From IMG/VR virus record IMGVR_UViG_2917875804_000001: 40,512 nucleotides of DNA. One strand, given 5' to 3'. This document shows positions 981 to 37,047 of the stretch, piece by piece. Under the pieces are notes generated by a model that worked only from the letters and a program-made list of their open reading frames with translations, ran no database searches and was not told where the DNA came from. Position numbers and translations under genes: made by a program. Source of the DNA: a virus. Lineage: Duplodnaviria; Heunggongvirae; Uroviricota; Caudoviricetes. Every line of letters begins with the position of its first letter. Position 1 is the first letter of the stretch.

Positions 981-1939
981 ATGCATAAGAGCAACTGCTT
1001 TGATACGGCAAGGCTTGTGGCAGCTATGATGGTTCTAATCAGTCACCACTACGCGCTCTCTGGACAACTCGAGCCGTATATGTTCGGCTTTGAAAGTGCT
1101 GGCGGCATTGCTGTTATCATATTCTTTTCCATATCAGGATACCTGATTTCAAAATCAGCAATCAGAAGTGATTCCTTTATTGATTTCATGGCTAAAAGAG
1201 CAAGAAGAATATTCCCTGCTCTTGTCCCTTGCTCTGTACTGACGTATTTTTTTATTTGGATGGATGCTTAACAACTTCAGTACAGAATATTTTAGTCATG
1301 ACATTGTCCGGAAGACCATAAGCTCTATTTTAATGAGTCAGGCTCCAGATGCCGACATTACATCACATTTAATTCATCCCGGTATTAACGGTAGCTTGTG
1401 GACACTACCACTGGAGTTTATGTGTTACATAATAACTGGAGTGGCTGTTGCTCTACTAAAGAGCGAGAAAACGTTCATAGTTATACTATTGATTTTTGTT
1501 TCACTTTCATTAGTTGAAAGTGTATCTGAGAACAAGGATGTAATATTCTCCATTCCAGTATGGCTGTATCCTTTGCGGGGGATGGCGTTCTTTTTTTGGT
1601 GCCACTATGGCGATGTATGAGAAATCTTGGAATGTAAGTAATGTGAAAGTTTCCGTGATTTCTTTGCTTGCTATGTACGCATACGCGAGCTATGGCAAAG
1701 GCATTGACTATACAATGGCTTGCTATATTCTGGTTTCTTTCTCAACAATAGCTATATGCACATCCTTTGGAGATCCACTGGTTAAGGGTAGGTTTGATTA
1801 CTCTTATGGTGTGTACATTTATGCATTCCCCGTTCAGCAGGTTATTATAAATACATTGCATATTGGCTTTTACCCTTCGATGTTGTTAAGTGCCATTGTC
1901 GTTTTTTTTCTTGGCTCATCTTTCTTGGAATCTAATTGA
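981..1939 (+). pseudogene. Acyltransferase family 3 (O-antigen/LPS acetylase-like) membrane protein, interrupted by two +1 frame changes
   Basis: Three consecutive ORF-track pieces (981..1271, 1264..1620, 1607..1939) in frames 0, 1, 2 form one hydrophobic multi-pass protein. The N-terminus (HHYALSG...IFFSISGYLISKS...RRIFPALVP) is the acyltransferase-3 signature. Both frame changes sit at T-runs (about 1247-1253 and 1591-1597). Confidence 0.7.
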
Positions 1940-2315
1940 AAAAAGATTCCTTACACGAAGCTCGCCCAAATTATCCCTGAATTGAATAATAAAGGGGCCA
2001 TCGAGCCCCTGAATAAATCAAAGTCAGATATAACACTGCCTGGCAGAGGACACCGTCCTGATGCCTCGTCCTGCAAGGACGAGCGAAGGTGGAACTCTTT
2101 TCCACGCAGCTATTTAGTACAGTACTGAGTCATATTGTTTATGTATGAGTTAACTTCCGTAATATCAATTAAATAAAATAAGTTGAGGTCATTGTAGAAG
2201 TGAGCATTATACCTAGGTTATCGGGACTTGCTGAAAATTGCGTATTATTCCAACAATTATCTTAGGTTGACAAGTCTATTTATTTGGAGGCATAGGCCAC
2301 TCGGGTTTTACTATA

Positions 2316-2678
2316 TTAACACGCATAAGCAGCACCCGATATTTTTTTCCATGCCAGTAACAGTTTCGTTTCATCATCTGTTGCCATATCTAAATCAACC
2401 GCATCCTGAAGCGGCGCTATTACATTCGTTGCCTCTGCTATCAGTGCAGATTTCTTTTCATTATTTATTAAGGCTAATTGTTCTGGTGTTGGAGAAGGAC
2501 GGTCAACAATGACAGGGTGACCGTTCTCACCACAGGTAATCATTTTTGTTACACTCTGTGAATTAATCAGTGTTTTCCACTCTGATTCCGAGATTTCCAC
2601 TGCATCATCAGGAATATTGGTGCCGTGAAATTCAGTCGAATAAAATCCGTTTGTCGATGCAGAATAAAAATATGACAT
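2316..2678 (-). CDS. Tail fibre assembly protein (Tfa family), C-terminus apparently replaced or truncated
   Basis: Translation from the internal ATG starts MSYFYSASTNGFY and contains ...ATNVIAPLQDAVDLDMATDDE..., typical of enterobacterial Tfa. The last approx 8 residues diverge and the gene abuts unrelated DNA at about 2340. Confidence 0.6.
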   Translation of the reverse strand: MSYFYSASTNGFYSTEFHGTNIPDDAVEISESEWKTLINSQSVTKMITCGENGHPVIVDRPSPTPEQLALINNEKKSALIAEATNVIAPLQDAVDLDMATDDETKLLLAWKKISGAAYAC

Positions 2679-2682
2679 TTCG

Positions 2683-3333
2683 TTAATATCCCATTGCAAT
2701 GTAATACGCATCAGCAGATGAACCATATCCTGAACCGGGCGACACCGTAATATTAAATCCAGTGTTCTGGACACTTGTCGCCGATACAGTCGGCTGCCCT
2801 GCCGCGCCAGTAACGTTTAATGTAACTACGACAGCAATGACTCTTGAGAACGTCATCGGAAACCTCATCCCGTATGTTGAAGATACATTCGGGGCACCAT
2901 TCAACTGACCGCACTGTAAAATTAATCCAGACGGAAATTTTTGCGCAGCAGCCGTTACGGTATTAATTGACGCGAACAGGCTCATATCAGGTATCTGATT
3001 CGCCCCTGTACCTACATTCCTTTTAGCCGCTTCTCCCAAACCAAGGTTTGCGAGAGCCGTTGGTACCGTGCCATCCGATTTGATATCGCCAAACGGATTC
3101 TTGCGGCTTAACAGCAGCGCACGAAGCGCGGTAAGCAGCTGGTCATGCCGCCCCTTCTCCAGGCTGGCACCGGATGCCTCCACCACGCTGCAAAGCTCCT
3201 CCTGCAACATGTCAAAGTAGTCATCATCCAGATCGGTGGCAGGTGTGCCGGTCTGGGGGTTACCACGGGTAAAACCGTTCTTACCCGCGCCGAACTTATC
3301 CTTCTGCGCGGTTTTCGTGTCTATACGATGCAT
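2683..3333 (-). CDS. Tail fibre protein (short; conserved N-terminal attachment domain)
   Basis: 216-aa ORF directly upstream of tfa and downstream of the baseplate genes; N-terminus MHRIDT...[24 protein letters not shown]. Confidence 0.6.
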
Positions 3334-3336
3334 GGA

Positions 3337-34949: not shown

Positions 34950-35735
34950 ATGAGTACAGCACTCGCAACGCTGGCAGGGAAGCTGGCTGAACGTGTCGGC
35001 ATGGATTCTGTCGACCCACAGGAACTGATCACCACTCTTCGCCAGACAGCATTTAAAGGCGATGCCAGCGATGCGCAGTTCATCGCATTGCTGATCGTCG
35101 CCAACCAATACGGCCTTAATCCGTGGACGAAAGAAATTTACGCCTTCCCTGATAAGCAGAACGGCATCGTTCCGGTGGTGGGCGTTGATGGCTGGTCCCG
35201 CATCATCAACGAAAACCAGCAGTTTGACGGCATGGACTTTGAACAGGACAACGAATCCTGCACATGCCGGATTTACCGCAAAGACCGCAATCATCCGATC
35301 TGCGTTACCGAGTGGATGGATGAATGCCGCCGCGAACCATTCAAAACCCGCGAAGGCAGAGAAATCACGGGGCCGTGGCAGTCGCATCCCAAACGGATGT
35401 TACGACATAAAGCCATGATTCAGTGTGCCCGTCTCGCCTTCGGATTTGCTGGTATCTATGACAAGGATGAAGCCGAGCGCATTGTCGAAAATACCGCATA
35501 CACTGCAGAACGTCAGCCGGAACGCGACATCACTCCGGTTAACGATGAAACCATGCAGGAGATTAACACTCTGCTGATCGCCCTGGATAAAACATGGGAT
35601 GACGACTTATTGCCGCTCTGTTCCCAGATATTTCGCCGCGACATTCGCGCATCGTCAGAACTGACACAGGCCGAAGCAGTGAAAGCTCTTGGATTCCTGA
35701 AACAGAAAGCCACTGAGCAGAAGGTGGCAGCATGA
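34950..35735 (+). CDS. bet: Bet (Red beta single-strand annealing recombinase)
   Basis: Essentially identical to lambda Bet over the full 261 aa. Confidence 0.95.
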
Positions 35736-36412
35736 CACCGGACATTATCCTGCAGCGTACCGGGATCGACGTGAGAGCTGTCGAACAGGGGGATGATGCA
35801 TGGCACAAATTACGGCTCGGCGTCATCACCGCTTCAGAAGTTCACAACGTGATAGCAAAGCCCCGCTCAGGAAAGAAGTGGCCTGACATGAAAATGTCCT
35901 ACTTCCACACCCTGCTGGCTGAGGTTTGCACCGGTGTGGCTCCGGAAGTTAATGCTAAGGCGCTGGCCTGGGGAAAACAGTACGAGAACGACGCCAGAAC
36001 CCTGTTTGAATTCACTTCCGGCGTGAATGTTACTGAATCCCCGATCATCTATCGCGACGAAAGTATGCGCACCGCCTGCTCTCCCGATGGTTTATGCAGT
36101 GACGGCAATGGCCTTGAGCTGAAATGCCCGTTTACCTCCCGGGATTTCATGAAGTTCCGGCTCGGTGGTTTCGAGGCCATAAAGTCGGCTTACATGGCCC
36201 AGGTGCAGTACAGCATGTGGGTGACGCGAAAAGATGCCTGGTACTTTGCCAACTATGACCCGCGTATGAAGCGTGAAGGCCTGCATTATGTCGTGATTGA
36301 GCGGGATGAAAAGTACATGGCGAGTTTTGACGAGATCGTGCCGGAGTTCATCGAAAAAATGGACGAGGCACTGGCTGAAATTGGTTTTGTATTTGGGGAG
36401 CAATGGCGATGA
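35732..36412 (+). CDS. exo: Exo (Red alpha 5'-3' exonuclease)
   Basis: Matches lambda Exo ([65 protein letters not shown]...). Confidence 0.95.
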
Positions 36413-36591
36413 AGCATCCTCACGATAATATCCGGGTAGGCGCGATTACTTTCGTCTACTCCGTTACAAAGCGAGGCTGGGTATTTCCCGGCCTTTCTGT
36501 TATCCGAAATCCACTGAAAGCACAGCGGCTGGCTGAGGAGATAAATAATAAACGAGGGGCTGTATGCACAAAGCATCTCCTGTTGAGTTAA
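36403..36591 (+). CDS. Hypothetical small early protein
   Basis: 62-aa ORF overlapping the exo stop, co-oriented. Confidence 0.4.
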
Positions 36592-36755
36592 GAACGAGTA
36601 TCGAGATGGCACATAGCCTCGCTCAAATTGGAGTCAGGTTTGTGCCAATACCAGTAGAAACAGACGAAGAATTTCATACGTTAGCCGCATCCCTTTCACA
36701 AAAGCTGGAAATGATGGCGGCGAAAGCAGAGGCAAACGAGAGAGAGCTTGCATGA
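36564..36755 (+). CDS. Hypothetical small early protein (YdaF/DUF1391-like as recalled)
   Basis: 63-aa ORF; ...[45 protein letters not shown]. Confidence 0.45.
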   Translation: MHKASPVELRTSIEMAHSLAQIGVRFVPIPVETDEEFHTLAASLSQKLEMMAAKAEANERELA

Positions 36756-36835
36756 CAACAACAGAATGCATTTTTCTGGCGGCGGGCTTCATATTCTGTG
36801 TGCTTATGCTTTCCGGCATGGGGCTTGTTCAGTGA
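36752..36835 (+). CDS. 27-aa hydrophobic peptide (MTTTECIFLAAGFIFCVLMLSGMGLVQ); speculative
   Basis: ATG overlaps the upstream stop (ATGA); single predicted TM helix. Confidence 0.25.
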   Translation: MTTTECIFLAAGFIFCVLMLSGMGLVQ

Positions 36836-37047
36836 CACCTCAGCAGAAAAAACGCCCTTCGCAGCATTGCCCGTCAAGCTAACTCTGAAATCAAAAAAGC
36901 CAGACAGCAGTTTCCGGATAAAAACGTCGATGACATTTGCCGTAGCGTACTGAAGAAGCACCGCGAAACGGTAACGCTGATGGGATTCACACCGACTCAT
37001 TTAAGCCTGGCGATCGGCATGTTAAACGGCGTCTTTAAGGAGCGATG
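36832..37047 (+). CDS. Hypothetical early protein of about 70 aa, apparently frameshifted at an A6 run (36847-36852)
   Basis: GTG at 36832 reads into the A-run and stops; the adjacent frame is open for about 65 codons (...NALRSIARQANSEIKKARQQFPDKNVDDICRSVLKKHRETVTLMGFTPTHLSLAIGMLNGVFKER) with no start codon of its own. Confidence 0.3.

Follow-up and report, generated by a model that had tools for sequence, protein, structure and literature searches.

CP4-6 of E. coli K-12 is a degraded cryptic prophage that lies at thrW beside proA and carries an insertion sequence (IS) element. In real cryptic prophages, large deletions, IS disruptions and substitutions are found, and these are common to related strains. 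The stretch of DNA analyzed here (IMG/VR record IMGVR_UViG_2917875804_000001; 40,512 nt, the whole of which is called the window below) holds a prophage of Escherichia cryptic clade II strain E4208 with the same integration site and likewise with an IS element. It differs from CP4-6 in that its lesions are one-base indels alone, none of which is common to a sister copy that shows no substitution. In gene order it resembles SfV-type lambdoid prophages, which sit at thrW and combine a Mu-like contractile tail with a serotype-conversion module; however, the present prophage is a mosaic with morons of its own (tRNA_anti-like OB-fold, DUF3800 and Invasin_D4-like genes), and its host is cryptic clade II, not E. 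coli or Shigella. Our comparison of the window with independent assemblies indicates that the frame breaks in this prophage are almost certainly base-calling or consensus errors of an Ion Torrent draft and not mutations.

The lesions themselves resemble the error profile of Ion Torrent's Personal Genome Machine (PGM). Bragg et al. (2013, PMC3623719) described high-frequency indel (HFI) errors, which occur in most reads of one run and are mostly not repeated between runs, most often take the form of A/T insertions or C/G deletions, amount to 1 per 1-2 kb and lead to frameshifts in assemblies. Strand-asymmetric HFI errors are mainly C/G deletions, with 82% in runs of 2-3 nt (PMC3623719). The breaks in the window are probably to be explained in these terms: as the platform derives the length of a homopolymer from the magnitude of a pH signal, miscalls would climb with run length, and they would be joined by run-specific HFI errors, of which there is about one in every 1-2 kb and which as a rule insert A/T or delete C/G, the latter in 2-3-nt runs; such errors would then pass into the consensus and appear as frameshifts. 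The likeness to the HFI class lies in indels alone, A/T insertions, C/G deletions in 2-3-nt runs, a density of about 1 per 1-2 kb and a frameshifted assembly. There are also differences, in that long homopolymers were reported to tend towards under-calling in raw reads whereas the consensus of the window always over-calls A/T runs of 4-7, and that kits of 100-200 bp were used in the earlier study whereas 400-bp libraries with MIRA and SPAdes were used here. In a 2025 comparison between Illumina and Ion Torrent sequencing for Listeria typing by core-genome MLST (cgMLST), the mean affected run length was 5.5 and adenine was affected most often, and Ion Torrent genomes were over-represented among RefSeq exclusions for "many frameshifted proteins" (PMC12046094). 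As in the present case, same-strain pairs in that study differ mainly by one-base homopolymer indels; however, the organism is another one, the chemistry is newer, and deletions outnumber insertions in the allele lengths (PMC12046094).

Contig PDIC01000013.1 (GCA_004745305.1) begins with the window, whose 40,512 bases it matches at 100% identity. This contig, one of four matched by an exact-protein look-up with ProA, belongs to Escherichia cryptic clade II strain E4208 (PDIC00000000). Among 5,426 complete E. coli genomes, the best match to the proA gene reaches only 97.2% identity, a divergence that is consistent with a cryptic clade II host instead of E. coli. The E4208 draft was built with MIRA and SPAdes from Ion Torrent single-end reads of 35-400 bp at 45x (PMC6639607), and the window sequence is, via PDIC00000000, of Ion Torrent (flow-based) origin. 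Exact-protein searches with TerL and cI were unhelpful because both proteins are widespread; they returned only unrelated long E. coli contigs, and the cI loci were then used as outgroups. As the sister assembly, a second one of the same clone, we used contig VATR01000022.1 of GCA_005781195.1, which holds the same prophage at the same site and spans the whole window. E. coli loci served as outgroups, together with Escherichia sp. E1V33, which came from an exact-pattern scan of species-representative genomes. In addition, the Logan assemblies of two sequencing runs, SRR8835205 and SRR6148339, were compared as a proxy for reads.

Over the 40,512 nt, the window and the sister differ by no substitution and by exactly 19 one-base indels (1 per 2.1 kb), and reverting the 19 indels renders the window identical to the sister. 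Fifteen of them are +1 changes in A/T runs with a true length of 4-7, three are -1 changes in C/G runs with a true length of 2-3, and one, the sole insertion in a G/C run, is a +1 change in a G4 run. Fourteen indels affect 12 genes, and the other five lie in non-coding DNA. The sites are listed below; the form given as true is in each case that of the sister.

430-434, no strand: A5, true A4 (+1); non-coding end of the IS3 element; A4 also in a Logan SRR8835205 contig
1247-1253, plus strand: T7, true T6 (+1); acyltransferase gene (corrected 981-1984), first of three sites; T6 in the homologue of E. coli CFSAN061762
1591-1597, plus strand: T7, true T6 (+1); acyltransferase gene, second site; true form in an outgroup
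1902-1909, plus strand: T8, true T7 (+1); acyltransferase gene, third site; in a three-way alignment the window is one base longer than the sister and E. coli
2342-2348, minus strand: T7 (read on the plus strand), true T6 (+1); tail-fibre assembly gene, 149 aa in the sister; true form in outgroups, and T6 in Logan SRR6148339
5976-5977, minus strand: one C missing, GCGCGC-GGGGG, true GCGCGCCGGGGG (-1); baseplate gpP-like gene, of which the C-terminus is changed (363 aa in the window, 359 aa true); CC in seven outgroups
9450-9452, minus strand: GG (9450-9451), true GGG (-1); tape measure gene, 610 aa true with a 439-aa fragment in the window; three-base length in twelve outgroups
16059-16061, minus strand: single C (16060), true CC (-1); major capsid gene, 401 aa true with pieces of 130 and 283 aa in the window; CC in eleven outgroups
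24439-24444, plus strand: A6, true A5 (+1); DUF3800 gene, 267 aa true, 152 and 129 aa in the window; true form in outgroups
27930-27935, plus strand: T6, true T5 (+1); splits the 225-aa moron; T5 in E1V33 and in Logan SRR6148339
29079-29085, minus strand: T7 (read on the plus strand), true T6 (+1); Bro-N/P22_AR_C gene, shortened from 201 aa (true) to 176 aa in the window; T6 in E1V33
31919-31925, minus strand: T7 (read on the plus strand), true T6 (+1); YdaT-domain gene, 179 aa true; T6 in eleven outgroups
32221-32226, minus strand: T6 (read on the plus strand), true T5 (+1); YdaS/cro-like gene, 75 aa true; T5 in eleven outgroups
32376-32380, plus strand: A5, true A4 (+1); non-coding, lies 3 nt upstream of cI (start codon at 32384); A4 in eleven outgroups
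33432-33438, plus strand: A7, true A6 (+1); 5' part of the 170-aa gene downstream of cI, 83 and 165 aa in the window; A6 in E. coli SCU-111
33944-33950, no strand: A7, true A6 (+1); non-coding; one base shorter in 12 of 12 outgroups
34180-34184, no strand: G5, true G4 (+1); non-coding, upstream of kilR; G4 in twelve outgroups
36847-36852, plus strand: A6, true A5 (+1); 93-aa early gene; one base shorter in 11 of 11 outgroups
37086-37092, no strand: T7, true T6 (+1); non-coding, between the 93-aa gene and a TraR-like gene; T6 in eleven outgroups

None of the 19 indels occurs in the zero-substitution sister or in any outgroup, and the outgroups (E. coli or E1V33) agree with the sister length at 18 of the 19 sites, so that the window is the odd one out; site 434 has no outgroup because the IS3 match stops at 387. 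After reversion, the 12 genes become single open reading frames (ORFs), the lengths of which match the gene calls in the sister and the E. coli homologues:

Acyltransferase 333 aa; tail-fibre assembly 165 aa (called 149); baseplate 359 aa; tape measure 610 aa; major capsid 401 aa
DUF3800 267 aa; moron 240 aa (called 225); Bro-like 201 aa; YdaT 181 aa (called 179)
YdaS 77 aa (called 75); gene downstream of cI 170 aa; early gene 99 aa (called 93)

The initial annotation, made from the sequence alone, had reported at least ten genes broken by one-base frame changes, and all of the 11 sites that it listed, in 10 genes, exist and interrupt reading frames, as seen from the ORF list, the relatives and the restoration of ORFs. 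The direction of change is also as it described: A/T runs have gained one base, whereas the capsid and tape-measure genes have each lost one from a G/C doublet. Most of its positions are right; however, the tape-measure change lies at 9450-9451 and not at about 9435-9445, and the capsid change at 16060 and not at about 16030-16050, deviations of some 10-20 nt. The T7 of the Bro-like gene, placed at 29080-29086, is present with the exact position 29079-29085. For the 27.6-kb moron, T-runs at 27930-27952 had been named, of which the T6 at 27930-27935 is altered and the second run, at 27947-27952, is not. The affected loci that it named are all real, but its list was incomplete, and the following eight sites were missed:

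1902-1909
2342-2348
5977
434, 32380, 33950, 34184 and 37092, all non-coding

Two further length differences are common to the window and the sister and separate both from the E. coli and E1V33 relatives, namely CCCC versus CCC at 20803, in the spacer between the HNH and TerS genes, and A7 versus A6 at 28432, after the moron. Both are intergenic, and they are either true differences between lineages or errors in both assemblies.

The indels in A/T runs are far more than expected by chance; for example, eight of the 39 A/T runs of length 6 are hit. By run length, the error rate is 0/13,919 for runs of up to 3 nt, 2/267 (0.75%) for 4, 4/95 (4.2%) for 5, 8/39 (20.5%) for 6 and 1/10 (10%) for 7, or 18% when lengths 6 and 7 are pooled. 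All of the 15 events in A/T runs are insertions, and all three events in C/G runs of 2-3 nt are deletions; the per-run rate in these short C/G runs is very low (2/3,166 and 1/576).

The same kind of lesion is found outside the prophage. Over 10 kb of chromosome past proA, the E4208 assembly differs from the sister by no substitution and by two further +1 indels in T-runs:

2955 (L004/L003), outside the window: +1 in a T-run of an acetyltransferase gene
4676 (L004/L003), outside the window: +1 in a T-run of pepD (T8 versus T7)

These indels break both genes, and neither gene has a protein call in the E4208 assembly. Among A/T runs of at least 5 nt, 2 of 39 are hit in the flank versus 13 of 144 in the window (Fisher p = 0.74), and the higher absolute density of indels in the prophage is due to its early region being richer in A/T runs. 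Window and flank together hold 21 indels and no substitution in 50.5 kb. The errors ignore gene function, given that five of the 19 in the window are non-coding and that two flank genes are broken, the evidence from the flank being these two events. Meanwhile, the long genes TerL, portal, sheath, int and proA are intact, as had been annotated. With the observed per-run rates, the probability of finding no error is 0.5-0.9 for each of them, and their intactness is expected by chance under the error model because they hold few long A/T runs.

The Logan re-assemblies bear on the same question. The SRR8835205 contigs match the sister at every site that they cover. Those of SRR6148339 carry the window-specific indels at 5977, 9452, 16061, 24444 and 37092, that is, at five of the seven sites covered, and are in frame at the other two, with T6 at 2348 and T5 at 27935. 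From these five shared indels, together with the one-to-one pairing of assemblies and runs, we infer that SRR6148339 represents the E4208 reads; the in-frame runs at 2348 and 27935 would then suggest that at least two of the calls depend on the assembler. In addition, the frameshift-specific fragments at 1253 and 33438 are absent among the SRR6148339 contigs, and the 96-aa acyltransferase fragment (site 1253) and the 165-aa variant of the gene downstream of cI are present solely in the deposited assembly.

Several points weigh against the attribution of the breaks to the platform. The case was built at the level of assemblies; the link between SRR6148339 and E4208 comes from shared indels and from the pairing of assemblies with runs; and the flank test has two events. 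Moreover, a second assembler gave the deposited length at five of the seven sites that it covers, all three C/G deletions among them. At these five sites most reads of the run would carry the assembled length, which would also be seen with a real change there. The five sites behave in a way that would fit run-wide high-frequency errors, and because HFI errors sit in most reads of a run, reads of the same Ion Torrent run that back the assembled lengths would not refute the artefact.

The initial annotation had left the choice between homopolymer errors in the assembly and a decaying, non-inducible prophage, and it judged correctly that this choice changes every functional inference; the former is strongly supported by our comparison and the latter is not. 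If the prophage were genuinely decaying, the frameshifts would be real inactivating mutations in a cryptic, non-inducible prophage of E4208. In favour of this, TerL, portal, sheath, int and proA are intact against twelve broken genes, a second assembler repeats five of the sites (the deletions in the capsid, tape-measure and baseplate genes among them), and an IS3 element lies in the left part of the prophage; decay is nevertheless extremely unlikely. The intact sister carries this IS3 element as well, and the scarcity of long A/T runs explains the intact long genes. As the sister is intact at every gene and shows no substitution over 50.5 kb, any decay must be extremely recent, and it would need 21 one-base indels, all on one side, without any substitution. 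Lesions of mixed kinds (substitutions, nonsense codons, larger deletions and IS insertions) would be expected from decay, but one-base indels alone are seen. They are not common to the closest relatives, five of the 19 lie in non-coding DNA, and they are not confined to the prophage, since pepD and the acetyltransferase gene in the flank carry +1 T-run indels as well. Finally, the data are from Ion Torrent, and the spectrum is the signature of that platform. Three other explanations were considered and rejected. Mutation-accumulation lines of E. coli defective in mismatch repair carry a mean of 6.02 substitutions and 0.85 small indels in coding sequences (PMC8510543), so that a mutator lineage would be expected to show about seven substitutions per indel, as opposed to the 21 indels and no substitution observed; if indels make up about 1/8 of events, the probability of 21 consecutive indels without a substitution is, by our own calculation, below 1e-17. 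Selection for inactivation of the prophage does not fit either, as non-coding DNA and housekeeping genes are hit and the loss of virion structural genes would not protect a lysogen. An error of Nanopore sequencing at methylation motifs, considered for site 9452 in its CCAGG context, was dropped because the platform is Ion Torrent.

It is also conceivable that the A/T insertions are artefacts and the C/G deletions at 5977, 9452 and 16061 (baseplate, tape measure and capsid) are real mutations of E4208, in which case E4208 would hold a very recently disabled prophage on top of A/T-run noise while that of its clone-mate is intact. All three C/G deletions recur in Logan SRR6148339 whereas two of the four covered A/T insertions do not, and the deletions lie in very short runs, where simple flow miscalls are rare (the rates of 2/3,166 and 1/576 given above). 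However, it is just such C/G deletions, in 2-3-nt runs and carried by the majority of the reads of a run, that have been described as the strand-asymmetric HFI class of Ion Torrent (PMC3623719). Three independent -1 events at non-hotspots, with no substitution in 50 kb, would be very unlikely as mutations, there is no selective reason for the loss of three virion structural genes, and the longer form is found in the sister and in 7-12 outgroups per site. We therefore regard such a mixed origin as very unlikely, although these three deletions are the only sites at which a real change keeps a small residual probability. Biological slippage, by which phase-variable tracts, programmed frameshifting or transcriptional slippage would allow the genes to be expressed despite the frame change, has a practically negligible probability. 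The window does contain one genuine candidate for it, the heptamer T_TTT_TTC of the tail assembly chaperone gene with an overlapping ORF in the -1 frame, but the T6 tract of this heptamer does not differ between window and sister and belongs to none of the 19 sites. At those sites the relatives and the sister are all in frame, so that conservation of the altered frame is lacking; with a true length of 4-7 the tracts are short, five of them lie outside genes, and recoding would be needed in twelve unrelated genes.

Platform error being the almost certain origin of the breaks, there is no new biology in the finding of broken genes, which is a known platform artefact, and the value of the result is practical, not biological. 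Inferences drawn from this contig on pseudogenes, on inducibility, on "broken" defence or moron genes or on small ORFs made by splitting would be wrong, and the prophage should be analyzed from the corrected sequence, which is identical to VATR01000022.1. Extrapolation from 0.2-0.5 indels per kb suggests that the E4208 draft, of 4.7 Mb, could contain about one to two thousand spurious indels. The same caution applies to other windows of the E4208 assembly and probably also to the 15 further Ion Torrent genomes from the study that reported E4208. The analysis also shows a cheap test, in which a near-identical independent assembly is sought and indels are counted against substitutions.

The prophage and its surroundings in the window are arranged as follows.

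981-39054, no strand: prophage part within the window, from acyltransferase to integrase according to the gene tables; the left end lies beyond the contig end
39069-39144, minus strand: tRNA-Thr(CGT), thrW, the attachment site adjoining the integrase gene; the sole tRNA in the window
39259-40512: proA, on the other side of tRNA-Thr(CGT) from the integrase gene

The tyrosine integrase gene by tRNA-Thr(CGT) and proA, together with the corrected regulatory, replication, lysis, head and tail genes, identifies a lambdoid prophage integrated at thrW. Its gene order is int-xis, red, cI/cro-like genes, O/P, nin, Q, lysis, HNH-TerS-TerL, portal, protease, capsid, sheath and tube, tape measure, baseplate, tail fibre, and acyltransferase with gtr genes. 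Hundreds of E. coli prophages in which a lambdoid early region is combined with a Mu-like contractile tail share 95-98% identity with the window. Judging from the corrected sequence, the true prophage at thrW is most likely complete and undamaged, a lambdoid phage whose contractile tail is Mu-like.

At its left side the window starts at the contig end inside the IS3 element (1-546). The sister contig continues from there (L018, 14591-19029) with a full IS3 transposase gene (391 aa), a gene for a 421-aa protein, a GT2 (GtrB-like) gene and a GtrA gene. As the sister contig runs on past the window start, the left end of the prophage and attL lie outside the window. The gtr-like genes of the sister and the acyltransferase gene at 981-1984 together form a module for O-antigen modification (serotype conversion).

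The tail assembly chaperone gene (10747-11165, minus strand; 89 aa, PF10109) ends in GGT TTT TTC in the zero frame, and a 60-aa ORF overlaps it in the -1 frame. The heptamer at 10908-10914 resembles the programmed -1 frameshift site that is classic for the tail chaperones of phages, and because the T6 tract is the same in both assemblies, the change of frame at this homopolymer would be genuine instead of an error.

Three genes appear as morons on the opposite strand. The 148-aa gene at 8444-8890 (plus strand), with a tRNA_anti-like OB-fold (PF12869), lies between the tape-measure and DNA-circularisation genes; in two close relatives (L017 and L019) an unrelated 225-aa gene occupies the same spot, which points to a variable moron slot in the tail operon. 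The gene for a 267-aa DUF3800 protein at 23995-24799 (plus strand), between Q and the holin gene, is intact once corrected. So is the 225-aa moron at 27575-28301 (plus strand), which has a weak match to Invasin_D4 and, among the species-representative genomes, is otherwise present in E1V33 alone.

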